A DNA stretch of 64,000 nucleotides, from contig JAYUSF010000220.1 in assembly GCA_043755815.1 (NCBI GenBank), forward strand, positions 14,361 to 78,360. Direction: 5' to 3'. Below are positions 8,207-20,810 of the stretch, piece by piece. Each line of letters opens with the position of its first letter. Positions within the stretch are counted from its first letter, which is position 1. The notes below the pieces were generated by a model. That model made no database searches, had not been told where the DNA came from, and saw only the letters and a program-made list of their open reading frames with translations. Origin of the DNA: Verrucomicrobiota bacterium (lineage in GTDB: Bacteria; Verrucomicrobiota; Verrucomicrobiia; Limisphaerales; UBA9464). The translations under genes and the position numbers were made by a program.

Positions 8207-9859
8207 CTATTTCGGTGGCGTAAACAGGCGAAAGAATCGGCGAACCGGGCTGTCCGGTTCGTCGGAACCTTCAATGTGAGGGCTGGTGGCATCGAAGAGG
8301 TCTTTGTAAGGGCCTTCAGGCTTCTCAGCGCGTTGCAGCACCACCTTCGGCTTATTCCAGAAAATGAGAGTGGGATGCCTGTCATCGAAAACGAAGGCTC
8401 CGAGACTGCCTTGTGACTCCGGCCCCTGCAGGAGGAAAGCATGGTCCTCGACCTCGCCATCCGGGGCCGACGCGGTGTTCAGGGCCTCCTTCGCGGTGCT
8501 GAAGCGGAAGCGCACATACAAGTGACCTCCGATCGGGACCTTCACCCCCGAAAGGCTGAAGCTGAACTGGTTCACGCCGGCATAGACGCCCGTGGCGCCC
8601 TCCCGTTGCGTGACGAAATCCGTGGTCAACATCTCGCTCGAAGCGCTGAAGCTCCCGTCACCGTTCTTATCCGCCATGACGGTCAGGAAACCCGCCGCCG
8701 AGGCATACACCGCGCCGCTGAGGACCCAGGTGGACGGATCCCGCGGATCCACCTGCGCGAGCCGCATCACCACGCCATCTTCATCGGGTCCGTCCTTATC
8801 GCGGTTGTCGTCGACGGCGTAAGGGGAGGGCTGGCCATCCCCGTCCGCGTCCACCGTCAGCCCCAGATGGATGCCCGGCTTGATGACGTGGGCCGGCCCG
8901 CCGCTGGCGGCCAGGGTCCGATAGGTGTCAGGGGCGTCGCCGTAGTCCAACGCGCCTTCCGCGGGTGGCGCCGCATGGACCGGCACGGGCGGGGAGAGCT
9001 CCGACGTGTTGCCGCTCGGGTCGGTGTATGTCAGCCGCACGGTGGTGCCGGGAGGAGGATTGTCCGGGGCAGGAAGATTGATCTCAAACTCACCGGTGGG
9101 GGTTCCCGTCACCTGAAAGACGCCCGTCGGCGTAAGCCGGACTAAGCCGCTAGCGAGCCGTTCTTGGGTGTAGATCTCGACCACTCCGACTTTGTCGGTC
9201 GCGAGACGGATCTGGCCGGTCACCTCGGTGCCCGTTGCCGTTGGCGTCGCCACGACGGTATCGGGGAAGGGGGTCCCACCGGGGCCGTTGGGATCGGTCG
9301 AATTCGGGCCGTCGCCGCCCACATCTATCGGGTTGGGACCCGTGAAGGTGTTGTTCTGGAGAGTGACGATTGGCTGAGCCTCTCCGGGTTCGTCGCGCAC
9401 GACGATGTGCGCGGTCTGGTCGTAAGGGGAATTGCCTGTGAACGTGTTGCCCTTGACGAGGGTCACCGGAGTGCTGCCTTGGGATGTATTTCCGCCGCCT
9501 TCGATCAGAATGAAGGGTTTCGTCATCGGCAGGTCGTTTTCGCCGTCACTGCTGAACTCATCAAAAATGCTATCGGAAATCTCCACGCCGGGGCTGCCCG
9601 TCAGCGTCATTGCGGGAGCGGTGGTGTTGAACTGCGAGTCGGTCACCACAAAGCCGGCCGAGTTTTGGGCGTCGATGGCCTGGCCGTTGCCGACTACAAC
9701 CACCCCCCGGACCTCGTTGTCACGACCGTCTATATCGGCGATGGCGGCTACCGCTCTCCGGAGGTCGCTCTGAAACTCGCTATCCGCATCTAGGGATAAA
9801 AGCGCCCCGAGGACGAGGCTTTGGAAAGATGTTGCCCCCCCCTGAAACCGGAGAGCGTA
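8207..9859 (-). CDS. C-terminal fragment of a beta-helix adhesin-like protein, with a GEVED domain and an FFRL-type terminal module
   Basis: The frame is open from 9859, and the track lists 8207..9703 from a GTG. It contains beta-helix-like turns (NTFTGNSPY, LQNNTFTGPNP) and an Ig-like stretch. Next come ALDYGDAPDTYRT...LGLTVDADGDG and SAPDGEVEDHAF, which is the GEVED signature. The tail is VVLQRAEKPEGPY...RRFFRLFTPPK. It is probably continuous with 9790..11015 through a poly-G slip. Confidence 0.6.
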   Translation of the reverse strand, partial: YALRFQGGATSFQSLVLGALLSLDADSEFQSDLRRAVAAIADIDGRDNEVRGVVVVGNGQAIDAQNSAGFVVTDSQFNTTAPAMTLTGSPGVEISDSIFDEFSSDGENDLPMTKPFILIEGGGNTSQGSTPVTLVKGNTFTGNSPYDQTAHIVVRDEPGEAQPIVTLQNNTFTGPNPIDVGGDGPNSTDPNGPGGTPFPDTVVATPTATGTEVTGQIRLATDKVGVVEIYTQERLASGLVRLTPTGVFQVTGTPTGEFEINLPAPDNPPPGTTVRLTYTDPSGNTSELSPPVPVHAAPPAEGALDYGDAPDTYRTLAASGGPAHVIKPGIHLGLTVDADGDGQPSPYAVDDNRDKDGPDEDGVVMRLAQVDPRDPSTWVLSGAVYASAAGFLTVMADKNGDGSFSASSEMLTTDFVTQREGATGVYAGVNQFSFSLSGVKVPIGGHLYVRFRFSTAKEALNTASAPDGEVEDHAFLLQGPESQGSLGAFVFDDRHPTLIFWNKPKVVLQRAEKPEGPYKDLFDATSPHIEGSDEPDSPVRRFFRLFTPPK

Positions 9860-11015
9860 TCAGATGCGCCTTTCATGTGGATGCGGTGGTCACTGGGAGC
9901 CGGTTCGCCGCTCGGTTCCGCTTGTTGCTTGGCAATCAGTGGCCGCCGCAGGCTGTTTTCAGAGGGTCTCCTTGCGGCGAGCGCCTCTCCAACTGGCAGC
10001 GGATGTCCCACGGCATCCACTTCCCAACCCAGCAGACATTGCGTGATTTGATGCCCGCCACCCCCGCGGAGTTCGATGTCATCGCCGGGATTGTTGAGGA
10101 AAACCAGTCCCTGGACTAGGCAGTCCTGCGCCTCGATTCGCAGGCCATCGCTGCCCGCCGGCAGGTTCTTCCCGTCGAGGCGGATCAGCAGCGTGGGCTT
10201 GAACTCGTTCGTGGACGTGTTGGCCGCACTGCCCGGCTGGCTCAGTCCGTCAAGGATCACGGCCCGCTTGATGACCGGCAGTTCGGTCGACGCCGCGATG
10301 GTATGGACGCCCGCTCCCGGAATATTGAACTCGATCCGCCGCGAAATCGCCGCTCCGGCGGCGTTCGCGTCCAGGATGGCCTGCCGCAACGAGCCCGGCC
10401 CGCTGTCGGCCGTGCTAGTGACCACGGCGACCAGCGGCGGACCCACCGGGAAAGTGACGGCGCGGCAGGCGCAGAACTCCGAGGTGTTGCCGGCGGCATC
10501 CGTGGCCGTGGCCGTGAAGAAGTTGCCGGGGGCGGCGACGGTCAACGTCAGCTCAAAGGTCGCGTTGCCAGAGGCATCCGTGGTCACGGAGGCGGTGCCG
10601 AGATACGTCTGACCTTCACCGTTGCCGGAAGGATCACATTCGTCGTTGCCGTAGAAATCGAGCGTGAAAGTTTGCGCGGCCACGCTGTTCAGGCTGCCCT
10701 GGAGCACGAGACCGGCAGCCGAGTTCGACGCGAGCGTCAGCACCGGAAAGTTCTGCCCGAGATTGGCCCCGGCATCGGCGTCGCCCGGGTCATTGGCGTT
10801 GATGCCGCTGCTGAAGCCCAGATCAATTCCGAGCGACAACGCGAACTGGTTGACCGGCCCGGGCGGCGACACGTTGCCAAAGATCGAGTTGCCCCGGATG
10901 GAAACCTGCCGGCCGGTGACATTGAACACGCCGTCGCCCCGGTTGTGCGCGATGACGTTGGCGGCCCCGGGCTCAATCCCGCCCACCGTGACGCCGTAGG
11001 CATTCGAGACGAATG
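9790..11015 (-). CDS. middle fragment of the same beta-helix adhesin-like protein
   Basis: The track ORF is 9790..11181. The sequence looks meaningful only from about 11015 (FVSNAYGVTVGGIEPGAANVIAHNRGDGVFNV...). It has parallel beta-helix style repeats and then a second copy of the module VTSTADSGPGSLRQAILDANAAGA...IEFNIPGAGVHTIAASTELPVI...ILDGLSQPGSAANT. Confidence 0.55.
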
Positions 11016-11860
11016 CCGCCGCCCAGATTACCCACGTCCGCGCTGCCCAGGAAGTCGGTGCCGATGCGGTTGCCCAGAATGCGAATCGCCAGGTTCTGCC
11101 CGGAGGCGCCGATGATGCGGAGGGTGGCGTTGGTCTGATTGCCGATGAACTGGTTGCCGGCTCCCGGCTCGGTCCCACCAATGGTCCCGCGCAGAGAATT
11201 GGTCAGCACCAAGGCCCCGCTGGCGCTGCCTTCGACCGGCGCGCCAGGCGTGCGGCGGATGCCGAAGAAATTTCCCTGAATGAGGAAGTCCGTTGCCTCG
11301 GTGGCCGAGATGCCGATGCCGCTGACGATCACGTTGCGCTGCCCGGCAGCCGTCCCACCGACGCGCGCGTTCACCCCTCGCCGGGTGGTGATGCCGACGC
11401 CGTCACCGCGAAACTGGCAGCCCTCGATTACGGTGCCATTCCCGGCCATATTCACGCCCGCCAAGCCGCCGACGAAGTCCACGCCGCGGATCACATTGGT
11501 TGCCCCGACGCAGACCAGGAAAAAGGGCGCGGTGCTGCCGGCCTCACCGATCTGGATGCGCCACTGCGCGTCCATGCCCGTCGCAAGCGTGTTGGGCGCG
11601 GAACCGGGCTGCGTGAAGCCGTCCAGCGTGACCTGGCCGTTCAGGGACGGCAGTTCCGACAGGGGGACGATCTGGTGAGGGCCGTCGCCCGGGATGTTGA
11701 ACTGGATCACGTCCGCCCCCGCCGGCTGGCTGTCTTGCAGCGCCTGCCGCAGCGAGCCCGGGCCGGTGTCGTTGACGTTGGTGACGGTGAAGGTGGCGGC
11801 GTGGCTGAACAGGCTGAACCCGAGCAGACCAAGGGTCGCGACGTCGGATAAGCGTTTCAT
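10973..11860 (-). CDS. N-terminal fragment of the beta-helix adhesin-like protein (signal peptide plus a CSLREA-like N-terminal module)
   Basis: It begins MKRLSDVATLGLLGFSLFSHAATF (Sec signal), then TVTNVNDTGPGSLRQALQDS...IQFNIPGDGPHQIVPLSELPSL...LDGFTQPGSAPNT, then repetitive G/N/I-rich beta-helix turns. It ends at a stop shortly after the frame break near 11013. Confidence 0.6.
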   Translation of the reverse strand: MKRLSDVATLGLLGFSLFSHAATFTVTNVNDTGPGSLRQALQDSQPAGADVIQFNIPGDGPHQIVPLSELPSLNGQVTLDGFTQPGSAPNTLATGMDAQWRIQIGEAGSTAPFFLVCVGATNVIRGVDFVGGLAGVNMAGNGTVIEGCQFRGDGVGITTRRGVNARVGGTAAGQRNVIVSGIGISATEATDFLIQGNFFGIRRTPGAPVEGSASGALVLTNSLRGTIGGTEPGAGNQFIGNQTNATLRIIGASGQNLAIRILGNRIGTDFLGSADVGNLGGGIRLECLRRHGGRD

Positions 11861-12018: not shown

Positions 12019-12067
12019 GACGCCGTGACCGACTGGGAGAAGCAGCGGTATTTCGAGCGGATTTGAA
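12019..12067. repeat. direct repeat copy 2 (49 bp, non-coding duplicate of the GS-gene 3' end)
   Basis: It is identical to 7798-7846 and lies 64 nt upstream of the glgB start. Confidence 0.95.
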
Positions 12068-12131
12068 GTGCGAGGGGGCGGGCCGTGCTTTTGCCATTCC
12101 GCTTTCCCCGGGTCGGGCGTTTACTCCCGCC

Positions 12132-14327
12132 ATGCTTCTCACCGACGCCGAGCTGCACTCGCTCACCGGGCTCGTTCATCAATCGCCCCACACGCTCCTC
12201 GGACTGCATCCGCTGGGCGATGGTTCCGGGCTGGTCGCGCGGGCGCAAATTCCCGACGCCGCCAAGGTTGAACTGGTGCCGGTGCATGACGTTTCGAAGC
12301 CGAAGATCGCGCTGAAGCGGATCGGGGAGACGGCGGTGTTTGAAGGCACGACGAAGAAGGCCAGCGAGGTCTACGCCTATGACCTCGTCATCACCTGGGG
12401 CGACGGCACCAAGACCCAGGGACGCGACCCGTTCTCCTTCTGGCCGACCGTCGGTGAAACCGACCTGCACCTCTTCGGCGAAGGCAATCACCGCAAGTTG
12501 GGCGACGTTCTTGGCGCGCAGTTGAAGACGCTCGACGGCGTTCCGGGCACCGGCTTCGCCGTCTGGGCACCCAACGCGCGGCGCGTTTCCGTCATCGGCA
12601 GCTTCAACGGTTGGGACGGCCGCCGCCATCCCATGCGCCTGCTCGGTTCGTCCGGCGTGTGGGAGATCTTCGTGCCCGGCGTCACGGAAGGCGCGCTCTA
12701 CAAGTTCGAGATCCTCGACGCGCAGGGGAATCTGAAGGTGAACACCGACCCGTTTGGCGCGCTCTTCGAGCAGCCGCCCAAGCAGGCCGCCATCGTCTGG
12801 AACACCAAGAAGTTCCAGTGGAGCGACGCGGCGTGGCTGGAGCAGCGCACCAAGACCAACTCGCTTAAGGCGCCGATGAGCATCTACGAGGTCCATCTTG
12901 GCTCCTGGCGCCGGAAGTCCGGCTGGGAAGCCCTCGGCTACCGCGAACTCGCCGGACCGCTGGTGGACTACGTGCGGAAGCTCGGCTTCACTCATGTCGA
13001 ATTCCTGCCGCTGGCCGAGCACGCCTACTACCCAAGCTGGGGCTATCAGGTCACCGGGTTCTACGCGCCCACCAGCCGTTACGGCACCCCCGAGGATTTC
13101 CAGTTCCTGGTCAACGCCCTGCATGAGGCCGGCATCGGCGTGCTCGTGGACTGGGTGCCAGCGCACTTCCCGCGTGACACCTGGGCCCTCGCGCAGTTCG
13201 ACGGCACCGCGCTCTTCGAGCACGCCGATCCGCGTCAGGGCGCGCATCAGGACTGGGGCACGCTCATCTTCAACTACGGCCGCAACGAGGTCAGAAACTT
13301 CCTCGCCGCCAACGCGCTGCACTGGTGCGAACGCTTCCACATCGACGGCCTGCGCGTGGATGCCGTCGCCTCGATGCTCTACCTCGACTACTCGCGCAAG
13401 GAGGGCGAATGGATTCCCAACCAGTTCGGTGGCCGCGAGAATTTGGAGGCCATCGAGTTCCTCAAGCACTTCAACCACCTCATCGGCACTGAACATCCCG
13501 GCGTCGTCACGATCGCCGAGGAAAGCACGGCCTTCCCGATGGTCTCGCGCCCGCCTTGGCTCGGCGGGCTCGGCTTCAACCTCAAGTGGAACATGGGCTG
13601 GATGCATGACACGCTCGGCTACTTCGGCCGCGATCCGATCTACCGCCGGTTCCACCAGAACGACCTCACGTTCGCGATGCTCTATCAGGGCCACGAGAAT
13701 TTTGTGCTGCCGCTCTCGCACGACGAGGTCGTCCACGGCAAGGGCTCGCTCCGCCAGCGCATGCCCGGCGACGACTGGCAGGCCGCCGCGAACCTCCGCG
13801 CGCTACTGGGCTACCAGTGGCTCTTCCCCGGCAAGAAGCTCCTCTTCATGGGCCAGGAATTTGGCCAGTCCGCCGAATGGAATTCCGCCACGGAACTCGA
13901 CTGGTGGCTCCTCGAAGCCGGCCCCTTCCACGCCGGTATCCAGAAGTGGATGGGCGACCTCAACGCCTTCTACCAGGGCGAACCTGCCCTCTGGCGCGGC
14001 GACTATGAGCAGGATGGATTCTGGTGGGTGGACTGCGGTGATCACGCCAACAGCGTGCTGACCTTCATCCGCCACGACCGCGAGTCCGGCTCCCACGTCC
14101 TCGCCGTGCTGAATCTCACGCCCAATCTCCTGAGCGGCTACCGCATTGGCCTGCCCAAGCCCGGCTGCTGGCGCGAAGTGCTGAACAGCGATGCCGGCAT
14201 CTACGCCGGCAGCAACCAGGGTAATCCGCTGGGCGTGACCGCCGAGGATTACGCGGTGCAGAACCAGCGTTACTCCGCGATGTTCACGCTGCCGCCGCTG
14301 AGCGTGAGCGTGTTCAAGGCGGAGTGA
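12132..14327 (+). CDS. glgB: 1,4-alpha-glucan (glycogen) branching enzyme
   Basis: GH13 branching-enzyme motifs are present: FAVWAPNARRVSVIGSFNGWDG, VLVDWVPAHFPRD, HIDGLRVDAVASMLYLDY, VVTIAEESTAFP, FVLPLSHDEVVHGKGSL, and the C-terminal VLNLTPN...YRIGLP. The start is set to ATG 12132 (MLLTDAELH...). The track ORF begins at a TTG at 12063 inside the 49-bp repeat. Confidence 0.95.
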   Translation: MLLTDAELHSLTGLVHQSPHTLLGLHPLGDGSGLVARAQIPDAAKVELVPVHDVSKPKIALKRIGETAVFEGTTKKASEVYAYDLVITWGDGTKTQGRDPFSFWPTVGETDLHLFGEGNHRKLGDVLGAQLKTLDGVPGTGFAVWAPNARRVSVIGSFNGWDGRRHPMRLLGSSGVWEIFVPGVTEGALYKFEILDAQGNLKVNTDPFGALFEQPPKQAAIVWNTKKFQWSDAAWLEQRTKTNSLKAPMSIYEVHLGSWRRKSGWEALGYRELAGPLVDYVRKLGFTHVEFLPLAEHAYYPSWGYQVTGFYAPTSRYGTPEDFQFLVNALHEAGIGVLVDWVPAHFPRDTWALAQFDGTALFEHADPRQGAHQDWGTLIFNYGRNEVRNFLAANALHWCERFHIDGLRVDAVASMLYLDYSRKEGEWIPNQFGGRENLEAIEFLKHFNHLIGTEHPGVVTIAEESTAFPMVSRPPWLGGLGFNLKWNMGWMHDTLGYFGRDPIYRRFHQNDLTFAMLYQGHENFVLPLSHDEVVHGKGSLRQRMPGDDWQAAANLRALLGYQWLFPGKKLLFMGQEFGQSAEWNSATELDWWLLEAGPFHAGIQKWMGDLNAFYQGEPALWRGDYEQDGFWWVDCGDHANSVLTFIRHDRESGSHVLAVLNLTPNLLSGYRIGLPKPGCWREVLNSDAGIYAGSNQGNPLGVTAEDYAVQNQRYSAMFTLPPLSVSVFKAE

Positions 14328-14330
14328 GCC
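14205..14330. repeat. glgB 3'-end segment duplicated at 16209-16334 (copy 1, functional)
   Basis: gccggcagcaaccagggtaatccgctgggcgtgaccgccgagga...gtgttcaaggcggagtgag aligns to 16209-16334 with a few substitutions. Copy 2 also has one extra A. Confidence 0.9.
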
Positions 14331-14370
14331 GGCAGTTTAGATCCACCAAGCACGGAGATCGCTCGCCACC

Positions 14371-14640
14371 ATGGATGCCCCGGAACTGTTATTGGCCTTT
14401 TTTGCAGTCATGGGCCTGCTTCTGGTGATCTTCGCCTCATCGGTTGCGAGGCTGCTTCGGTCGTTGTCGGCGATCGCGTTCAAACAGCCCAGCCAGCAAT
14501 GGCCTTTGGCGAAGGCGATGGTGGGTCTTGTGTTCGAGCCCCGGCGACTTCCCTTTGTCGTGAGGGCGCTCGGAGTTGCCTATGTGGCGACGGGGATGTT
14601 GCTTTTTTTTCTTATAAAGCTGCTACCTCGTCTTGGTTAA
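14371..14640 (+). CDS. hypothetical small membrane protein (89 aa)
   Basis: It has an ATG start and two clear hydrophobic helices (LLLAFFAVMGLLLVIFASSV, ALGVAYVATGMLLFFLIKLL). It lies in the accessory patch after glgB. No family was recognised. Confidence 0.4.
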   Translation: MDAPELLLAFFAVMGLLLVIFASSVARLLRSLSAIAFKQPSQQWPLAKAMVGLVFEPRRLPFVVRALGVAYVATGMLLFFLIKLLPRLG

Positions 14641-14728
14641 GGGCGCGCACGGGATCCAGGTCCGCTCTCTGGCATTGCCGCGCAAACGCCCCCTTGACCG
14701 GTTGCCCAACTCGCAACAGAAGTGAGTT

Positions 14729-14953
14729 ATGCTGAATCTGGAAAATCTCCGGTCCCGGGTGCGCGGTGCCGGCTTCACTCCCTTCACTTTGCACCTGACC
14801 GATGGACGGGAGCTTCAGGTGCCGCATCCTGAGTTCATCGCAGTTAGCCGCAATATCGTTGTGGTGGTGACCGAGGACGGAGTGAGTTTCAGCATTGATC
14901 CTCTCCACATCGTCGCAATCTCCGACAGGTCGGCGGCGCCGACGGCTGGGTAA
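14729..14953 (+). CDS. hypothetical protein (74 aa)
   Basis: The ATG-initiated ORF has globular-looking composition (FTPFTLHLTDGRELQVPHPEFIAVSRNIVVVVTEDG). No recognisable family. Confidence 0.35.
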   Translation: MLNLENLRSRVRGAGFTPFTLHLTDGRELQVPHPEFIAVSRNIVVVVTEDGVSFSIDPLHIVAISDRSAAPTAG

Positions 14954-15038
14954 GATCGTCGGCACATGTTTCTGCGTTGTAGTGAAGGCGGTCCGTTTGC
15001 CGGATTGAACCGACGGTTGAATACGACATACTTCCGCC

Positions 15039-15284
15039 ATGCGACTTGCTGAACTCTTGCCGGCTCTTCGCGAGCTGCCGCGACCGGAGAAGCTGCTCGC
15101 GGTGGAATTCCTGAACAACGAACTCGCCCGAGACGCTGAGCCTGGAGCGACTACAGTCCAGAGTGCCAAACCGGCTGCTTCCGGTGCGATCCATGCCGAA
15201 GTGCTGGCCCTTTCCGGCCTCGTCCCGGCCGGCATTGAAGCCCGGGAAAGCCACATGGAGCACCTGCTGGCCAAGCACCGGTGA
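15039..15284 (+). CDS. putative antitoxin (addiction-module component with LPxxE(K/R) N-terminal motif)
   Basis: The N-terminus LPALRELPRPEKLLAVEFLNNELA resembles the LP..ER..La..L motif of small addiction-module antitoxins. Its stop overlaps (GTGA at 15281-15284) the start of a PIN-like remnant. Confidence 0.4.
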   Translation: MRLAELLPALRELPRPEKLLAVEFLNNELARDAEPGATTVQSAKPAASGAIHAEVLALSGLVPAGIEARESHMEHLLAKHR

Positions 15285-15463
15285 AAGTCCTGCTGGATCT
15301 CAACGTCCTGCTCGACGTGGTGCAGCAACGGGTGCTGGGAAGTGAAATGTTCCGCGGGCAGCCGTTCAGAACATCTCTTCGCCAAAGGGAAGCTGGCTCG
15401 GAAGCAGGAACGTCTTCACCAGTTCACCCTCGCCGCAGACGGTCATTCCCGGAAACCGCTTGA
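15281..15463 (+). pseudogene. truncated PIN-domain (VapC-like) toxin remnant
   Basis: The first 17 codons (V)KVLLDLNVLLDVVQQR match the conserved PIN N-terminus containing the first catalytic Asp. After about codon 20 the sequence loses any PIN-like character, and the region is occupied by an opposite-strand two-gene cassette. Confidence 0.3.
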
Positions 15464-15611
15464 ACCAAGGCCCCGGCGGCACGGTTGGCTGAGTGTCCAG
15501 CCACGAGGCCAACTGCCCGAGCGCACTGGCCGGAATGCGGCGCTGCTCAATCCGATCCAGCAGGTGTCGCAACACCGCGGGTGGCAGGTTCTGACGACGA
15601 ACCGTGGGCAT
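15366..15611 (-). CDS. hypothetical protein (81 aa), downstream partner of a putative antitoxin (candidate toxin)
   Basis: Its ATG shares one base with the upstream gene's TGA (TGATG at 15609-15613), a typical TA-pair coupling. No known toxin family was recognised. Confidence 0.4.
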   Translation of the reverse strand: MPTVRRQNLPPAVLRHLLDRIEQRRIPASALGQLASWLDTQPTVPPGPWFKRFPGMTVCGEGELVKTFLLPSQLPFGEEMF

Positions 15612-15823
15612 CAGCGGCGGCCGTAGAATCCGGTCTCGATGGAGTCTCGCAGGACTTGGGCTTCCGCAACGTCGTTGGTCGTTGCCAAGCGTTCTCCCAG
15701 AGTGGTCAAGGCGGCGGCGCTCAGCATCCCCTCAGCTTCCAAACTGCGGGCGAAGCGGATGACTTCAGCCCGCTCCACGGCTGGCAGGGCGACAATCTCG
15801 CCGATGATTTGCGTGGCAGTCAT
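15611..15823 (-). CDS. putative antitoxin (addiction-module component, LPxxER motif)
   Basis: IIGEIVALPAVERAEVIRFARSLE matches the LP..ER..(hydrophobic)..L motif of small addiction-module antitoxins. It is 70 aa and coupled to the next ORF. Confidence 0.4.
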   Translation of the reverse strand: MTATQIIGEIVALPAVERAEVIRFARSLEAEGMLSAAALTTLGERLATTNDVAEAQVLRDSIETGFYGRR

Positions 15824-15883
15824 GACCGCAGGCTACTGAAACTGGGCGACAGGGTCAAACCGGGTGGACTCAGAAGGAATGCA

Positions 15884-16212
15884 GGCGCATCTGGGCACCG
15901 TCGGCTGTGCTCCGCTTGCTGGTGGGGCGAGACTCTGTCGAGCCCCACCAGCAAGCGGAGCGAGGCGAACGGAGTGAGCATCTCTTCCCCTCGCCCCCGA
16001 GACGCTCGCCGCGCTCGCACCGGCTCCGCCGGCAAACAGGGCTCGACGGAGTCTCGCCCCACCGGGCACGCGCGGTGTTTGACGCGCGAATGCTTGGTGA
16101 ATGAATGCAACTGCGCAGCGTCGTCGGCTTGAAACAGCTTCAATGAAATTCCCTGCCTCTGGCCGTCGCCTCTTCGCCATCTTGTCCGCCTTCAGTTTCG
16201 CCTGGGCCGCCG
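15884..16212. repeat. copy 1 of a ~330-bp repeat (upstream region plus first codons of the beta-helix gene at 17377); contains a nested palindromic element at 15913-16063
   Basis: It aligns along its length with 17117-17446 at an estimated 85-90% identity by eye. It includes a perfect 15-bp stem (15913-15927 with 15943-15957) and a long-range arm at 16042-16063. It ends at the chimeric junction with the glgB-tail copy. Confidence 0.85.
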
Positions 16213-16334
16213 GCAGCAACCAAGGGCAATCCGCTGGGCGTGACCGCCGAGGACTACGCGGTGCAGAACCAGCGCTGCTCCGCGATGTTCACGCTCCCGC
16301 CGCTGAGCGTGAGTGTGTTCAAGGCGGAGTGAGT
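16209..16334. repeat. non-functional duplicate of the glgB 3' end (copy 2)
   Basis: See 14205-14330. It is fused at 16209-16212 (microhomology gccg) to the signal-peptide-coding 5' end copy, giving the chimeric track ORF 16101..16376. Confidence 0.9.
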
Positions 16335-16462
16335 TCCGGGCAGCTTCCTGACGGGCACCGCTCAGTTTGTTGCTGAGTCCATTTCCCAAGCCCCGCGGAC
16401 CGACAGCGAGTTGCACAGACGTGCGCCCGACCACTTGAAGCGCTCCACGCTCCGCGCGGGGC

Positions 16463-16765
16463 CTACGCCGCCAAGGGCAGCACGAGCGGCTGGAGCGTCT
16501 TGAGTTCCGGGGCCAGCCGGCGCTCGGCTTCGCGCAAGTCGTAGTGCGCTTGCAGGTTCACGAACCATTGCGCGTCCACCCCCAGGATGTGCGCCAACCG
16601 CACCGCAGAGTCCGGCGTCAGCGGCCGGCGGCCGTTGACGATCTGCGACAGCGTGGGCTGCGAGATGCCCGTGGCCCGCGCCACGCCCGCCACCGTGAGG
16701 TTCAGCGGTTCCAGGAATTCCTCCCGGAGCAGCACGCCCGGATGTTTCAGCTTCAATGCGTTCAT
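16463..16765 (-). CDS. higA: HigA-family antitoxin (XRE-type HTH)
   Basis: HPGVLLREEFLEPLNLTVAGVARATGISQPTLSQIVNGRRPLTPDSAVRLAHILGVDAQWFVNLQAHYDL is a textbook HigA/VapI HTH antidote sequence. The start is set to ATG 16765, 4 nt after the higB stop. The track ORF runs to 16786. Confidence 0.9.
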   Translation of the reverse strand: MNALKLKHPGVLLREEFLEPLNLTVAGVARATGISQPTLSQIVNGRRPLTPDSAVRLAHILGVDAQWFVNLQAHYDLREAERRLAPELKTLQPLVLPLAA

Positions 16766-16769
16766 GGCT

Positions 16770-17051
16770 TCAATGGTAGTCCACAATCTCCACGTCGTGC
16801 GCGTTGCCCGCCTGCCAGCGGAAGCACAGCCGCCACTGGTCGTTCAGCCGCAGGCTGTGCTGCCCCTTGCGGTCGCCCTTCAGGGCTTCCAGCCGGTTGC
16901 CCGGCGGCACCCGCAAATCTTCCAGCCGGGTGACCGTATGGAGCAGTTGCAGCCGGTCCAACGCCTTCTGCTGGATGCCGGGCGGCAGGCGTCTGGACCG
17001 TTCCGCCCGCCAGATGCGCTCGGTTTCCTTGTCGGCAAAGCTGACAATCAC
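16770..17051 (-). CDS. higB: HigB-type toxin (RelE/ParE superfamily, plasmid maintenance system killer protein)
   Basis: The 93-aa product reads FADKETERIW...IQQKALDRLQLLHTVTRLEDLRVPPGNRLEALKGDRKGQHSLRLNDQWRLCFRW...DVEIVDYH, which matches the HigB killer-protein family. The toxin-first gene order is typical of higBA. Confidence 0.9.
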   Translation of the reverse strand: MIVSFADKETERIWRAERSRRLPPGIQQKALDRLQLLHTVTRLEDLRVPPGNRLEALKGDRKGQHSLRLNDQWRLCFRWQAGNAHDVEIVDYH

Positions 17052-17116
17052 TCCGCCGCACCGTTTCTCCGCAGCGCCAATTCGTCAAACGAATAGAACG
17101 GACGCGTCCCGGCCAG

Positions 17117-17446
17117 GGCGCATCTGGACACCGAACGCAGCGCTCCGCCTCTTGGTGGGGCGAGACTCCGTCGAGCCCACGAACGAGCGTAGCGAGGCGA
17201 ACGGAGTGAGCATCTCCTCCCCGCGCCCCGAAATGCTCGCTGCGCTCGCGCCGGCTCCGCCGGCAGACAAGGCTCGACGGAGTCTCGCCCCACCGGGCAC
17301 GCACGGTGTTTGGTGCGCACAAATGCTTGGTGAATAAATGCAACTACCGTGGCTTCGTCGGCTTGAAACTGCTTCAATGAAATTCTCCGCCTTCATCCTG
17401 CGCCTCTTCGCCACCCTGTCCGCCTTCAGCCTCGCCTGGGCCGCCG
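17117..17446. repeat. copy 2 of the ~330-bp repeat (native upstream region and 5' end of the beta-helix gene); contains a palindromic element at 17154-17294
   Basis: It has perfect 24-bp inverted repeats: ggtggggcgagactccgtcgagcc (17154-17177) and ggctcgacggagtctcgccccacc (17271-17294). It aligns to 15884-16212. Confidence 0.85.
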
Positions 17447-18630
17447 AAAGCACCGCACCCTTCGGCCAGCTCAAGAACCTTCGCGAGTTTGGCGTCGCGC
17501 CGACCAATTCACCCGCCGCCAACAAGGCCGCGCTCCAGCAGGCGATTGACTGGGCGGCCCCGCGCGGCGCGGCACTGTTTCTGGAGCCGTCGGACGAGCC
17601 GTATCCGGTGGACGGCGGGCTCGTGCTCCGCATGAACGTCTCGCTCATCGGCGTGCATGGCCCGGTCGGACGCGGCACCCGACATCCCGCCAAGCCGCAG
17701 CCGGTCGGCAGTGTCTTCCGCATCACCGACACGACGAACGTCTTCCTCACCGTCGAATCCGCCACGCAGGTCCGCGGGCTTCAGTTCTGGTATCCGGACC
17801 AAACCATCGACGATCCGGCGAAGCTCATCCGCTATCCCGCAACGATCCAGGTTTCGCAGACCCGCGCGGCGCAGGGCGTGACACTTTCGTGCCTGACCTT
17901 CTACGGCGAATGGCTCGCGATGGACTTCAACTCCAAGCCGCCGCACATCTGCGAGCAGATCCTGTTCGAGCACTGCTACGGTTATCCGCTCGGCGGCGAA
18001 TTCATCCGCCTCGACTACTGCTACGACATCCCGCGGATTCTCCACTGCCATGTAAACCCGTCGAACCAGCGCTTCATCCGCGGCGGCTACAGCAAGTCGG
18101 TGATCGATGCCGTGGTCGCGCAGAAGACCTTCACCTACGCCATCAATCATACCGACAACGCGGTGCTGATGGACGTGTTCACCTTCGGCGTTTACGGCGG
18201 CGTCTATCTCGGATCGGCGACCTACGGGCAGCTTACGCAGTTCAACCTCGATTGTGTGACCGTGGGCATCCACAAGCTCGGCGACGGCACGTTCAACCGG
18301 AATTGGCAGATCGCGCAGGGTTCGATCATCGCCAACACCGGCCCGCGCGTGGAAGACGTGCATCCGATCATCATCGAAGGCCAGGGCCACACCGCGCTGG
18401 CCAACGTGGAATGCTTCTCCGGCGGCAACGGCGCGCTCACGACGCTGAACCAGTCGCAGGACTTCCTGCTCGTGCGTGGCGACAGGAAACTCACCGTGAG
18501 CCTGGTCGGCTGCCGGATGCGCAACTACGTCGCCGACTCGCCGCTGACGCTGCTGAACCCCAAGGCGCTGGTGCAGGCGACCGTCTGCGTGGACAAGCGT
18601 GAAGAAGCGTGGAGCTGGCCGGTGCGGTGA
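17377..18630 (+). CDS. secreted right-handed beta-helix protein (pectate-lyase-3 / GH28-related superfamily)
   Basis: The signal peptide is MKFSAFILRLFATLSAFSLAWAAE. The N-terminal block NLREFGVAPTNSPAANKAALQQAIDWAAPRGAALFL resembles the start of Pectate_lyase_3/tailspike-like domains. The start is set to ATG 17377. Confidence 0.6.
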   Translation: MKFSAFILRLFATLSAFSLAWAAESTAPFGQLKNLREFGVAPTNSPAANKAALQQAIDWAAPRGAALFLEPSDEPYPVDGGLVLRMNVSLIGVHGPVGRGTRHPAKPQPVGSVFRITDTTNVFLTVESATQVRGLQFWYPDQTIDDPAKLIRYPATIQVSQTRAAQGVTLSCLTFYGEWLAMDFNSKPPHICEQILFEHCYGYPLGGEFIRLDYCYDIPRILHCHVNPSNQRFIRGGYSKSVIDAVVAQKTFTYAINHTDNAVLMDVFTFGVYGGVYLGSATYGQLTQFNLDCVTVGIHKLGDGTFNRNWQIAQGSIIANTGPRVEDVHPIIIEGQGHTALANVECFSGGNGALTTLNQSQDFLLVRGDRKLTVSLVGCRMRNYVADSPLTLLNPKALVQATVCVDKREEAWSWPVR

Positions 18631-18774: not shown

Positions 18775-19806
18775 GTGATCTCGCGTCGCAGATTCATGCA
18801 GGCCACGCCAGTGGCGCTCGGTTCCCTCCTGGCGGCACCGTCGCTCCTCGGGGCCGAAACGACGGCGACCCCGCCCGTCATCGGCCGTAGCACCCGTCCG
18901 GCCCGGGCGGGTGATGGCGTCGCCACGCTGGATCACGGACGCCGCCAGGGACTCCGGCTCCTCCAGTTCACCGACAACCACTTCTTTTGCGGCGTGAAGG
19001 AGGGAATGGAAATCATCGGCGATGACCGCGCGACGGAACGCGACTGGCAGAGCTTCGTCCGCCACTTCCAGCCCGACCTCATCGTGGCAACCGGTGACCT
19101 CTGGCACGATAACCCCGGCGGCCGCGGCCAGGCCACGCTCGAACACGTCCTGCCGAAGCTCGCCGCGCTCGGCGTTCCGTGGGCCACCTGCTGGGGCAAC
19201 CACGACCAACTCGATGACTACCAGCGCGGACACGACGCCCTCGAAGCCGCCCGCCACTCGCTCTACCGCGGTGGCGCCACGCACGGCGACTACCGGATCG
19301 AAGTCCGCACCACCGACGCCACGGGCGCCGACCGGCCCGCGGTGCAGTTGTTCTTGCTGAACAGCAACCAGTTCGGCCTCGGCGACTGGCAGCTCGCCGC
19401 GCTCGGGCGCATGCAGGCGGAACTTTCCCGCACGGCCACCATCCCGTTGCCGGCGCTGGCCTTCTTCCACATTCCACTGCTTGACCAGAAGACGCTCTTC
19501 CGCCCCAAGGTGATCGCGGGGCTCTGTCACGAGGAGGTCTGCCACGAGCAGGAATCCGGTCGCGCCTTGCCCGCGCTTGCCGAGGGACATGCCCTCCGCG
19601 CCACCTTCTGCGGCCACGACCACGTCAACGACTATGCCGTGCGCGCCCGCGACGTGGACCTCGTTTACGGCCGCGCGACCGGCCATGCGGGTTACGGCGG
19701 CGACCAGGTCCGCAAGGGCGCCAAACTCATTGAACTCGACTTTGCCACCGGCGCCTACACCCAGACCACCGTCTTCGCCGACGGCACGCGCTGGAAGCCG
19801 GTGTGA
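18775..19806 (+). CDS. Tat-secreted calcineurin-like metallophosphoesterase
   Basis: A twin-arginine signal (ISRRRFMQATPVALGSLLAAPSLLGA) is retained only with the GTG start at 18775. Metallophosphoesterase motifs are present: QFTDNHF, ATGDLWHDN, WGNHD, FFHIPL, CGHDHVNDY. Confidence 0.85.
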   Translation: MISRRRFMQATPVALGSLLAAPSLLGAETTATPPVIGRSTRPARAGDGVATLDHGRRQGLRLLQFTDNHFFCGVKEGMEIIGDDRATERDWQSFVRHFQPDLIVATGDLWHDNPGGRGQATLEHVLPKLAALGVPWATCWGNHDQLDDYQRGHDALEAARHSLYRGGATHGDYRIEVRTTDATGADRPAVQLFLLNSNQFGLGDWQLAALGRMQAELSRTATIPLPALAFFHIPLLDQKTLFRPKVIAGLCHEEVCHEQESGRALPALAEGHALRATFCGHDHVNDYAVRARDVDLVYGRATGHAGYGGDQVRKGAKLIELDFATGAYTQTTVFADGTRWKPV

Positions 19807-20022: not shown

Positions 20023-20748
20023 CTACCTTTCCAAGGCACGCAGCAGATACGTCATCTCCTCGTCCACGCTGCCGTCGTCGGGCTGCGTTTCGTGGACCTC
20101 CTCGCGCAGGGCTTCGCGGAAGCGTTCGCGCAGGCGGTGCAGCGCGACCTTGAACGCGCCGCCGCCCAAACCCACGGCCCGGCCGGCGGTATCGTAGTCC
20201 GCCTGGGTGCCGCTGGAGGTCAGGAACGGGCGCAGAGCGCTGAACTCGGCCTCCTTGCCCCGGCGGGCGTAGGCGGTCTCGACGCGGCCGAGCGCGCGTT
20301 CGAGGAGCGTGAGCGCCCATTGCCGGTCGAAGAAATGTTGCGGCGTTTCCGCCGAGGCGGGTTCCTCGCAGAACCATTCCTCGGCTTCGGCGGCGTCGAA
20401 CGACACCACCCGGCCGCCGCCGCGGCGTTCGGCGCCGGCCTTCACCTGTTCGTCGCGTAGGTGCCGGCGGAACACGGTGAGCAGGAAGGTGCGCAGGCGA
20501 CCGCGTTCGGCGTCGGCGCGGTCGAACAGGCGTAGGTGCAGCACGGCGGCGAAGAAGCCTTGCACGGCGTCCTCGGCGTCGGCCGGTGCGAGGCCGCTGC
20601 GACGGGCCCAGGCGTAGAGCGGGAACCAGTAGGCGGCGCAGAGCTGTTCGAGGGCGGCGCGGGCCGGTTCGCCGTCGCCGCGCGCCTGGAGCACGAGGCT
20701 CCAGCGGGTCGGGGCGAAGGCGGCGGGACCGTGGGAATCGGCCGGCAC
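20023..20748 (-). CDS. ECF-type sigma-70 family RNA polymerase sigma factor (planctomycete/verrucomicrobial subgroup)
   Basis: The N-terminus TRWSLVLQARGDG..ARAALEQLCAAYWFPLYAWARRSG...DAEDAVQGFFA (region 2) and the C-terminal HTH GGGAFKVALHRLRERFREALREEV (region 4) are typical of this ECF subgroup. The maximal ORF reaches 20853, and I favour the GTG at 20748. The start is uncertain. Confidence 0.8.
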   Translation of the reverse strand: MPADSHGPAAFAPTRWSLVLQARGDGEPARAALEQLCAAYWFPLYAWARRSGLAPADAEDAVQGFFAAVLHLRLFDRADAERGRLRTFLLTVFRRHLRDEQVKAGAERRGGGRVVSFDAAEAEEWFCEEPASAETPQHFFDRQWALTLLERALGRVETAYARRGKEAEFSALRPFLTSSGTQADYDTAGRAVGLGGGAFKVALHRLRERFREALREEVHETQPDDGSVDEEMTYLLRALER

Positions 20749-20810
20749 GCGAAAAAAGTAGGGGCGGAGGTGTAACCGCGCCAGCGGCGTTCCCAAGAAG
20801 GGGGTGACAG

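Follow-up and report, generated by a model that had tools for sequence, protein, structure and literature searches.

The window, a stretch of 64,000 nucleotides from a Verrucomicrobiota contig, carries a gene island bordered by two conserved genes. On the left, glgB (1,4-alpha-glucan branching enzyme; 12063..14327, + strand) is an intact ORF with 87-90% amino acid identity to its orthologues in relatives L001, L004 and L203, the last of which shows the domains GlgB_N, CBM_48, Alpha-amylase and Alpha-amylase_C. On the right, gene 17377 (17377..18630, + strand, 417 aa) encodes a conserved secreted protein: 170 related stretches were found in genome contigs, and the best 80 of these 170, from several phyla, share 64-94% amino acid identity with it. 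The "beta-helix" label given to this gene in the initial annotation found no support from Pfam, NCBIfam or PDB sequence matches, of which the protein has none. The sole hint was a weak Pect-lyase_RHGA_epim match in one of 24 homologues, and a single-sequence AF2 model (pLDDT 33) was unusable.

Comparison of the window with itself gave the order G1-X-A1-G2-Y-A2 over 14205-17446, where G1 and G2 are copies of the glgB tail, A1 and A2 copies of a segment reaching into the signal-peptide codons of gene 17377, and X and Y the two interiors. G1 and G2 are similar over 111 nt at 95%, and their full alignment of about 126 nt holds five substitutions and one inserted A; the alignment of A1 (15883-16212) with A2 (17115-17446) extends for about 330 nt and shows 85-89% identity. 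Both repeat pairs far exceed chance expectation, while X and Y showed no similarity in this self-comparison. The initial annotation had placed two interleaved repeat pairs here in a G-interior-A, G-interior-A order and judged the event not recent; the self-comparison and alignments bear out both the pairs and their order, and the age is supported as well. This recombination scar is real and old, and it lies inside a variable toxin-antitoxin island that extends from glgB to gene 17377.

Interior X begins with a small hydrophobic ORF of 89 aa (14371..14640, + strand), part of an 'alpha-type' glgB 3′ flank that is colinear with L207 right after the glgB stop. It is 67% identical to the L207 ORF over an equal length and without gaps, and no further homologue was found among 5.8 billion proteins. 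A 74-aa ORF follows (14729..14953, + strand), from a small family without annotation (27 homologues), which also lies downstream of glgB in L207 and L209 and forms three tandem paralogues in L206. The next gene encodes a vapB-like antitoxin (81 aa; 15039..15284, + strand) with 85% amino acid identity to an L004 ORF upstream of a PIN_3 gene. Its toxin partner is lost, and a deletion scar, PIN′ (15281..15334, + strand), retains only the first 18 codons of a PIN (vapC) gene: 18 of 18 residues agree with the PIN_3 protein of L004 at its N-terminus, unrelated sequence follows, and homology to L004 stops at 15335. The same truncation was found in L204. Finally, two overlapping genes (15366..15823, - strand) coding for 81-aa (15366-15611) and 70-aa (15611-15823) proteins have a toxin-antitoxin-like architecture but gave no match in Pfam, NCBIfam, PADLOC or PDB-fold comparisons; for the 81-aa protein, at least 1985 homologues were counted, 80-81 aa long. 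The location of this pair varies, left of a two-component module in L203 and right of it, truncated, in L001.

Interior Y is attached to G2 by a native 'beta-type' glgB 3′ flank (16335..16405, + strand), which is homologous to what follows the stop codon of glgB in L001 and L203 and has no similarity with the flank on the 3′ side of G1. It carries an intact type II toxin-antitoxin operon (16463..17051, - strand), higB at 16770-17051 and higA at 16463-16786 (or 16463-16765), in agreement with the earlier identification of Y as higBA: higB matches PF05015 at 3.1e-18 over profile positions 2-91 of 91 and higA matches HTH_3 at 1.1e-12. In L001, higBA sits directly downstream of glgB.

Repeat A had been described as a promoter with signal-peptide codons. 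The second part of this description held and the first was too simple: about 205 nt of A are a MITE-like palindromic element and not promoter, and no promoter consensus was found in A. Copy 1 (15883..16087, + strand; core 15921-16063 with 24-nt terminal inverted repeats) is strongly structured (z = -5.9) and flanked by GAATGC at 15877-15882 and 16088-16093. Copy 2 (17115..17320, + strand; core 17154-17294) has arms that are 100% complementary, and the two copies differ at about 13% of sites. The element is carried by L204 and absent from L001, L002, L004, L203, L206 and L207, L001 showing an empty site at the position of copy 1. At least 120 metagenome contigs contain its arm motif, and in five of them the 145-nt core is 76-84% identical. 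It is thus similar to MITE and REP-like repeats by its terminal inverted repeats, its lack of coding capacity, the 6-bp direct repeat at the original site with an empty site in a relative, and its relatives on unrelated contigs, but differs in that its family comprises a short form of about 70 nt and a long one of about 150-205 nt, and in that its mobility is putative and no transposase partner was found. Copy 1 is followed by a stub of gene 17377 (16088..16212, + strand), made of its 5′ UTR (16088-16142) and signal-peptide codons 1-23 (16143-16212). The functional 5′ UTR and signal-peptide codons follow copy 2 (17321..17446, + strand), and the stub is 89% identical to them in the UTR and 83% in the codons.

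Two alleles can be delimited in this arrangement. Allele 1 reads glgB-89aa-74aa-vapB-PIN′-81aa/70aa-MITE-5′ UTR-signal peptide and ends after signal-peptide codon 23; allele 2 comprises the last 41 glgB codons, the native glgB 3′ flank, higBA, MITE, 5′ UTR, signal peptide and gene 17377. They meet at CGCCG (16208..16212, + strand), a 5-nt microhomology at the site of the previously noted gccg (16209-16212) and one base longer. The A1-G2 joint is an illegitimate junction of duplication type, linking downstream to upstream sequence at a short GC-rich microhomology. A chimeric ORF crosses it, in which MKFPASGRRLFAILSAFSFAWAA continues into glgB-tail sequence thrown out of frame by an extra A, as the initial annotation described. 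In silico deletion of this A (CAACCA[A]GGG, 16222/16223) restored ...AWAA-GSNQGNPLGVTAEDYAVQNQRCSAMFTLPPLSVSVFKAE-stop, which indicates that the fusion was originally in frame. It is now a dead fusion, and the functional ends are glgB with G1 and gene 17377 with A2, consistent with the former view of A2 as the native start of this gene. G1 (14205..14330, + strand), the final 41 codons and stop, carries two unique changes relative to the relatives, both synonymous and in third positions; G2 (16208..16334, + strand), the pseudogene copy, carries about 2-3 unique substitutions, a Tyr-to-Cys change among them, besides the single indel.

The possibility of an assembly chimera had been raised for this junction, and we found the joint reproduced by a second assembler. 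Logan contig L081 (run SRR23617202, 2 samples) corresponds to window 16042-17294, without any difference at 16208-16212, and mismatches the window only at 17268-17282, within a repeat arm; L082 corresponds to window 13897-15983 at 100%. Logan contigs come from k=31 de Bruijn assembly with an assembler other than that of the window, and because 5 nt of identity cannot generate such a joint, the rearranged molecule exists regardless. An artefact or alternative connectivity through the palindromic element, with allele 1 intact on the chromosome and the 1.23-kb unit (MITE-UTR-signal-peptide stub, G2, flank and higBA) in a circle, a tandem array or another strain, would agree with the breaks of L082 and L081 in or near the element (15983 and 16042), which leave 15984-16041, within the A1 element, covered by the window assembly alone. 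Moreover, at 17268-17294 L081 leaves the path of the window and enters a third element copy with a different flank; that sample thus contains several copies of the element, which entangle assembly graphs. We nevertheless hold this explanation to be highly improbable: besides the k=31 joint, the divergence between the element copies allows larger-k assemblers to separate them, the right arm of the window (17271-17294) is fully complementary to the left arm while the variant arm of L081 is not, which favours the window path, and a 1.2-kb circle would have no replication function.

The left junction of copy 2 with the higBA region lacks a target-site duplicate, which indicates a derived junction. 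It lies within about 2 nt of the left end of the element, as judged from the L001 empty site, as would be expected of an adjacent deletion at an element end, and the unit of UTR stub, G2, flank and higBA is bracketed by two direct element copies. These features would suit an element acting as the driver, by transposase-mediated adjacent deletion or composite mobilisation of the segment between the direct copies. Such an origin is unlikely in our opinion, as the decisive A1-G2 joint falls at plain microhomology 125 nt beyond the element and at neither of its ends, homology between A1 and A2 is equally high through the non-element UTR and signal-peptide codons, and no transposase gene is evident among the island ORFs.

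Comparison of the regions downstream of glgB in relatives revealed that the island is hypervariable, with at least eight configurations (L001, L002, L004, L203, L204, L206, L207 and L209), and that the single-copy states evoked in the initial annotation exist. Four of the relatives possess a LytS/LytTR/pilin-like module that is missing from the entire window. Each half of the scar matches a different single-copy configuration. G1 with the 89-aa and 74-aa ORFs is colinear with L207 (window 13211-14946, 85.8%), and the succession vapB/PIN′-81aa/70aa-repeat-gene 17377 is that of L204, which is colinear with window 15024-16212 and then runs uninterrupted into gene 17377. G2 with its flank and higBA matches the single-copy arrangement of L001 and L203, in one HSP with L001 (window 16208-17105, 87%) and over 16212-16405 with L203. 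Both flank types are therefore older than the event, and as a single chromosome has one glgB end to duplicate, they cannot come from simple duplication. L207 is itself no deletion derivative of the window structure, since the region upstream of its gene 17377 is 34-38% identical to A1/A2, lacks the MITE, and has a 74aa-to-gene-17377 junction common to L206. A second, independent signal-peptide stub was found in L209, where PIN′ is fused to UTR and signal peptide before unrelated DNA, with a breakpoint within about 3 nt of that of the window.

The age of the flanks and the separate single-copy matches indicate that the interiors were probably distinct alleles from the start. On balance we lean towards a scar formed by two different island alleles stacked head-to-tail, DNA of allele 2 having been added to a chromosome with allele 1. 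The tandem duplication proposed initially keeps its duplication-type joint at microhomology, but not its single interior that later diverged, given the matches of the flanks to L207 against L001 and L203, and of the remainder to L204. An extended form of this model is the main rival, tentatively possible: sister-chromatid illegitimate recombination at CGCCG would have duplicated in situ the span from inside glgB to signal-peptide codon 23, with later loss or exchange of different cassettes in the two copies. Both the type of junction and its microhomology agree with this model, and so do the MITE insertion shared by both A copies and their sister relationship in MITE and 5′ UTR (mutual identity 85-89%, identity with L204 or L001 about 70-74%; quartet site counts of 7:2:1), which this model predicts and a merger explains only by recent sharing between donor and recipient. 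Branch lengths also agree with one constrained and one free copy, with 2 unique changes in G1, 3 plus the indel in G2, and an A1 branch about three times that of A2 in a three-sequence comparison of signal-peptide identities. Each cassette set is kept exactly once, as would be expected if loss of the last toxin-antitoxin copy were lethal, and CCGGnCAG at 14329-14336, 16338-16345 and 17109-17116 provides short matches at the other two junctions. A free-standing allele 2 (glgB-flank-higBA-MITE-gene 17377) was found in no relative, which counts against a merger.

Against duplication in situ, the glgB-89aa junction is common to L207 and the native flank and higBA of the second copy to L001 and L203, so that two older flank types would require inter-lineage replacement; at least three further events are needed, and a perfect repeat of about 3 kb, probably highly unstable, would have to survive until then. 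A heteroallelic merger would start from diverged repeats of 125 and 330 nt. No G site is shared-derived between G1 and G2 in the comparison with relatives; at two sites G1 agrees with L206/L002 and G2 with L004/L203, although homoplasy in a decaying pseudocopy is possible over about 125 nt. Likewise, three sites in the signal-peptide codons pair A2 with L001 against A1 (91% for A2-L001 versus 83% for A1-A2), few sites in about 70 nt where homoplasy is possible. The higBA-MITE junction requires an extra deletion under both models.

One illegitimate joint plus homologous recombination would be the most likely way to merge the two alleles, allele 2 coming from a closely related strain, or from a diverged sister copy, into a recipient with allele 1. 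A first route would be homology-facilitated illegitimate recombination (HFIR), with gene 17377, in its conserved body, as the homologous anchor and with the free end within glgB joining at CGCCG on the border of the anchor with insertion of 1.24 kb. Alternatively, the fragment may have been circularised at CGCCG and integrated by a single crossover in the A homology of about 330 nt. HFIR is known from natural transformation of Streptococcus pneumoniae, Acinetobacter baylyi and Pseudomonas stutzeri and from E. coli conjugation, with 3-10 bp microhomology, inserts of about 1 kb and usually a deletion of about 1 kb of recipient DNA; circularisation with single crossover is an alternative fate of incoming DNA (PMC3240628). 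The scar is similar by its single joint, whose microhomology is short and GC-rich (5 bp), its insert size, and the position of the joint at the border of a conserved stretch, a potential anchor, with DNA added beside the conserved gene. It differs in that no recipient DNA is deleted and that the 'foreign' DNA represents an alternative allele of this locus, hence the duplicated flanks. Also, the homologous crossover is not observable here and, like the donor and recipient tracts, is a supposition of the model. Microhomology-mediated, RecA-independent tandem duplications in bacteria likewise join a downstream to an upstream site at a few identical bases, head-to-tail, leaving intact outer genes and a non-functional central fusion, but the units here have no common interiors and bear two different ancient glgB-flank types.

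Orphan arrays formed by sequential displacement, for which HFIR has been proposed as mechanism, are known from the T6SS effector-immunity arrays of Vibrio cholerae and from orphan toxin-immunity modules of Rhs/CDI systems (PMC5361080). There too, a new module arrives next to a conserved gene, displacing the former module and a stub of that gene, which are nevertheless kept; the explanation given for their retention is that losing a protective gene would be costly. Here, toxin-antitoxin cassettes between two housekeeping-type genes take the place of secretion-system effectors, the stubs are the 3′ end of glgB and the 5′ end of a signal-peptide sequence, and the window shows a single stacking step, with one other stub in L209. 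The locus is no new kind of system; it is ordinary in kind, a neat instance of known recombination processes. The useless fusion would have decayed later, by frameshift and faster substitution, and recombination between G1 and G2 or A1 and A2 would eliminate one set of toxin-antitoxin genes, a plausible contribution to the persistence of the scar.

A repeat search of 12-20 kb in the window found the tail of glgB twice (14218-14328 and 16223-16333, 95% identity) and a collinear chain of matches between 15884-16218 and 17117-17452 (84-90%). Pairwise alignment set the extents of the two glgB tails at 14205-14330 (G1) and 16208-16334 (G2), and those of two copies of the region upstream of gene 17377, with its signal-peptide codons, at about 15883-16212 (A1) and 17115-17446 (A2). 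Both approaches agree on two interleaved repeat pairs, as claimed in the initial annotation. G1 and G2 differ by five substitutions and one indel, A1 and A2 by 11-17%; the same search gave no similarity between the two interiors, X (between G1 and A1) and Y (between G2 and A2). Special conservation or gene conversion was ruled out as the cause of the 95% identity of the G copies, the 3' third of glgB being generally 90-97% identical to a related locus, L001.

The passage from A1 to G2 lies at CGCCG (16208-16212), where the gene 17377 signal-peptide coding sequence meets glgB codon -41. This pentanucleotide occurs both in the signal-peptide codons (GCC GCC G/AA) and in glgB (TAC GCC G/GC), so that the microhomology is 5 nt long; the 4-nt gccg proposed earlier was correctly placed and one base too short. 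Read from the ATG at 16143, the ORF encodes MKFPASGRRLFAILSAFSFAWAA and then glgB sequence out of frame, and removal of one A from CAACCAAGGG (16217-16226) gives back GSNQGNPLGVTAEDYAVQNQRCSAMFTLPPLSVSVFKAE with its stop. This agrees with the earlier description of a chimeric ORF thrown out of frame by an extra A. Since deletion of that single base restores the frame, the fusion was in frame at birth and the frameshift came later; the ORF (16101/16143-16376) is a pseudogene. No exact protein match is on record for it, for the gene 17377 product or for a 128-aa ORF running across A1 and the joint. Separately, we observed CCGG(n)CAG at 14329-14336 (between G1 and X), 16338-16345 (just after G2) and 17109-17116 (between higBA and the mobile element described below), which could be the microhomology used at the other two junctions, or chance in GC-rich DNA.

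An independent assembly (Logan, k=31, run SRR23617202) contains two contigs that match the window, each present in two samples. The first, L082, is 100% identical to window 13897-15983. The second, L081, corresponds to 16042-17294 and is identical over the joint, with differences confined to 17268-17282, where it enters a third copy of a palindromic repeat with another flank; this extra copy breaks up the Logan assembly of that sample. As a de Bruijn joint cannot arise from 5-nt identity, the junction was present in the reads. The stretch 15984-16041, which lies within the palindromic element of A1, is covered by the window assembly only. Mis-assembly, a swap of paths through the two element copies included, is very unlikely. 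The window arms 17154-17177 and 17271-17294 are perfectly complementary, which favours the window path over the swapped one.

Relative to L001, window 15883-16087 (205 nt) is an insertion with GAATGC at both sides (15877-15882 and 16088-16093), and L001 carries the empty, uninterrupted site. The element has inverted terminal repeats of 24 nt, GGTGGGGCGAGACTCYGTCGAGCC, and folds far beyond shuffled sequence (z about -6). In soil, peat and lake metagenomes, at least 120 unrelated contigs carry its arm motif (loci L083-L202, for example L109 1207-1349 and L148 6565-6706), and five of them share a 145-nt core at 76-84% identity. Short forms (arms 39-56 nt apart) and long forms (about 150-205 nt) exist, and the 64-kb window holds no copies besides the two. 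An Rfam scan of 13.5-18.5 kb assigned no Rfam family, the palindrome giving sub-threshold miRNA-hairpin matches alone. With its inverted repeats, target-site duplication, empty site and dispersed copies in unrelated flanks, the element is MITE-like. The 205 nt of A upstream of the duplicated 5' UTR are best read as a mobile repeat and not as a promoter; the 5' UTR and the signal-peptide codons make up only the last ~125 nt of A. A sigma-70 promoter scan returned 0 sites, and terminator-like sites were no more frequent than in shuffled controls. The second copy (17115-17320) is without the left target duplicate, so that the junction of higBA with the element needs one further deletion in any model; a rearrangement driven by the element itself is very unlikely.

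The right border of the island, gene 17377 (17377-18630, plus strand), encodes an unusually conserved secreted protein of 417 aa with 64-94% amino acid identity among the matches listed (L001-L080). The alignment, with 73% mean column identity, spans Verrucomicrobia, Planctomycetes, Abditibacteriota, Bacteroidetes and other MAGs, and shows numerous invariant positions occupied by Cys, His, Trp, Asp and Asn. The product gave no match in Pfam, NCBIfam or PADLOC, nor in the PDB even with a 24-sequence profile. One of 24 homologues scanned singly showed a weak pectate-lyase-like Pfam match, and the single-sequence AF2 model reached a pLDDT of 33; the "beta-helix" label is a guess.

Scanning a collection of genomes with the protein of gene 17377, together with exact-protein look-ups, gave eight related loci from Verrucomicrobia/Limisphaerales MAGs and metagenome contigs, with 85-93% nucleotide identity to the window in glgB and gene 17377. 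The two genes adjoin in all loci reaching both, and the intervening DNA differs in each. Between glgB and gene 17377, L002 carries only a module M; L004 an 87-aa ORF, vapB-PIN and M; L001 the native glgB flank, higBA, M, OmdA and a truncated 81/70 pair (the 81-aa and 70-aa ORFs discussed below); L203 the native flank, a 227-aa ORF, an 81/70 pair and M; L207 an 89-aa and a 74-aa ORF; and L206 three 74-aa ORFs, tandem paralogues at 684-1398. Two further contigs are partial: L204 reads vapB, 18 codons of PIN, 81/70 pair, MITE-like element and gene 17377, and L209 reads glgB, a 134-aa ORF, a 74-aa-like ORF, vapB, 45 codons of PIN fused to a gene 17377 stub (UTR and signal peptide), and unrelated DNA. 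Module M is 3.3 kb long and encodes a LytS-type histidine kinase, a LytTR response regulator and an N-methyl pilin-like protein (L001 4782-8134; L004 6557-9856; L002 899-4193; L203 4676-7864); it is found nowhere in the 64-kb window, nor in L206 or L207.

Outside glgB and gene 17377 we found no synteny between the window and these relatives, even at protein level. With L001, L003, L004 and L203, synteny stops exactly at the outer ends of the two genes (<12060, >18640). The relatives' loci lack any adjacent equivalent of the window's neighbouring genes, namely the Metallophos protein (18775-19806), a 276-aa ORF (20023-20853, minus strand) and the ORFs at 9790-11860; a very large ORF of 1723 aa (20811-25982) directly follows the divergently oriented 276-aa ORF.

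On its minus strand Y carries higB and higA as one intact operon, with the toxin gene first and the two genes overlapping or abutting; matches to PF05015 (3.1e-18, whole profile covered) and HTH_3 (1.1e-12) bear out its earlier identification as higBA. X contains an 89-aa hydrophobic ORF, a 74-aa ORF (14729-14953) of a family that carries no annotation, and a vapB-like gene with 18 N-terminal codons of its PIN toxin behind it. These codons match the start of the full-length L004 PIN_3 protein without a difference and are all that is left of the toxin in the window, where VapBC is accordingly not intact. An overlapping pair of 70-aa and 81-aa ORFs follows on the minus strand (15366-15823; also L203 8104-8561 and L001 9604-9949). 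The ORFs of X, this pair included, gave no Pfam, NCBIfam or PADLOC match. Homologues of the 81-aa protein number at least 1985, mostly of 80-81 aa with a few up to 98, and 65-99% identical among the 120 listed, Armatimonadetes included; this family too is unannotated. Its AF2 model (pLDDT 82) consists of two helices and a three-stranded sheet and has no PDB fold match at E<=0.001. The position of the pair within the island varies between genomes; this and the architecture are its only toxin-antitoxin-like features, and the pair may represent an undescribed toxin-antitoxin-like family. An integron-type cassette array was ruled out because the cassette boundaries share no repeat: besides G, A and the element arms, no attC-like shared boundary repeat lies between cassettes in 12-20 kb. 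The island ORFs contain no integrase domain.

The A1-G2 joint connects downstream sequence to upstream sequence, head to tail and at a short microhomology, as a tandem duplication would and as had been proposed for this junction. Comparison of the region downstream of glgB in relatives gave the single-copy states: L001, L002, L004, L203, L206 and L207 have one glgB tail and one gene 17377 5' end each, and in L204 X runs straight into gene 17377. A simple tandem duplication would also give copies alike over their whole length, later decay allowed for, whereas here the interiors are unlike and G1 and G2 are followed by 3' flanks of two types. In copy 1, 13211-14946 (glgB to the 74-aa gene) is a single unbroken match to L207, the sequence right after the glgB stop included; 14990-15335 matches L004, and 15024-16212 matches L204, which then enters gene 17377 and not G2. 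In copy 2, 16208-17105 is a single unbroken match to L001, where higBA directly follows glgB, and L203 too has 16335-16405 as the 3' flank of its glgB. This native flank bears no similarity to the sequence 3' of G1. Thus the functional glgB has an "alpha" flank and the pseudocopy G2 a "beta" flank, and both types occur in other lineages, which speaks against the earlier proposal of one duplicated interval with later diverging interiors.

Since a chromosome has one glgB end and duplication in situ gives the same flank twice, the simplest reading of these sequences, and on balance a probable one, would be that two pre-existing, different island alleles were joined. Duplication in situ with later replacement or loss is possible and rather doubtful. 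A version in which the duplication was followed by copy 1 losing higBA and copy 2 losing X had its basis in L001 and L204; it was demoted by the junction of glgB with the 89-aa ORF, which is common to another lineage, L207. L207 itself did not arise from the window structure by deletion, as it is without the MITE-like element, its gene 17377 upstream region is essentially unalignable with A1 and A2, and its junction of the 74-aa ORF with gene 17377 is common to L206. One observation counts against the joining of two alleles: in the element and UTR, A1 and A2 are sister sequences (85-89%, versus about 70-74% to L204 or L001), so the two alleles would have shared that segment recently. The few informative sites (2-3) hint at different origins of G2/A2 and G1/A1. 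G1 and G2 have no common derived state, and at two sites G1 agrees with L206/L002 and G2 with L004/L203; over the signal-peptide codons A2 shows 91% identity to L001 and 83% to A1, with 3 sites versus 0-1 grouping A2 with L001. Sliding identity against seven relatives showed no clear switch from donor to recipient; parental sequences are not among them, and they are syntenic in glgB and gene 17377 alone.

If two alleles were joined, the starting point would be a chromosome with allele 1 (glgB, 89-aa ORF, 74-aa ORF, vapB, truncated PIN, 81/70 pair, element, UTR, signal peptide) and a fragment of allele 2 (glgB tail, native flank, higBA, element, gene 17377) reaching from inside glgB into gene 17377. 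The fragment could have entered by homology-facilitated illegitimate recombination (HFIR), with a homologous anchor and an illegitimate joint at CGCCG. Alternatively, it could have circularised at CGCCG and been integrated through one crossover within the 330 nt of homology between A copies. Both routes yield exactly the observed product and are indistinguishable here. HFIR is known to combine one homologous anchor with one illegitimate joint at 3-10 bp of microhomology and inserts of ~1 kb, and circularisation with a single crossover is one fate of incoming linear DNA (PMC3240628); the window joint of 5 bp and insert of 1.24 kb resemble the reported HFIR values. The joint falls exactly at the start of the conserved body of gene 17377, after its fast-evolving signal-peptide codons.

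G2 carries three unique changes and the indel, G1 two synonymous changes, and the signal-peptide branch of A1 is about three times that of A2. From the divergence of the copies and this excess of unique changes in the pseudocopies, the structure is judged not recent, as first suggested; if two alleles were joined, part of the divergence would be older than the joining and the age of the scar would be read differently. Recombination between G1 and G2 would delete X, and between A1 and A2 higBA; if the modules are active, cells in which the repeats had collapsed would be poisoned. A similar logic of retention has been proposed for immunity genes in T6SS arrays (PMC5361080).

A second scar was found in L209 (1396-1755, JGI 3300071644 contig), where PIN is cut after ~45 codons and fused to the terminal 11 nt of the 5' UTR of gene 17377 and 25 signal-peptide codons, with 160 nt behind them that match none of the sequences compared. 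This independent stub ends within ~3 nt of the position of the A1-G2 joint, which hints that the gene 17377 border is a recurrent joint site; 83 loci homologous to gene 17377 contained no further stubs of its 5' end. An unlikely extension is stacking of alleles enforced by toxin-antitoxin modules, in which ordinary homologous replacement of an allele would kill recombinants by deleting the resident toxin-antitoxin cassettes, and the survivors of rare illegitimate add-on events would keep the old allele beside the new. Each round would then leave a glgB tail and a signal-peptide 5' end as a stub, the scar would be locked in because G1/G2 or A1/A2 collapse removes a toxin-antitoxin set, the L209 stub would mark a recurrent process at a conserved gene border, and the island would be the chromosomal equivalent of the orphan arrays of T6SS and Rhs systems.

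This kind of event is already known from illegitimate or HFIR-type recombination, displaced-module arrays, toxin-antitoxin islands and MITE insertions, and the window, from an organism known from metagenome assemblies alone, is a well-resolved new instance. It offers a clean natural case of the rebuilding of a flexible island between two conserved genes, with at least eight configurations among genomes 8-15% diverged, cassettes truncated and re-joined, and one probable case of stacked alleles that keeps its breakpoint to the base. A "duplication scar" seen in one genome can be a merger of two pre-existing alleles. If toxin-antitoxin modules force retention of displaced alleles, the structure would speak directly, at the genome level, for the part they have been proposed to play in keeping regions of the chromosome stable.
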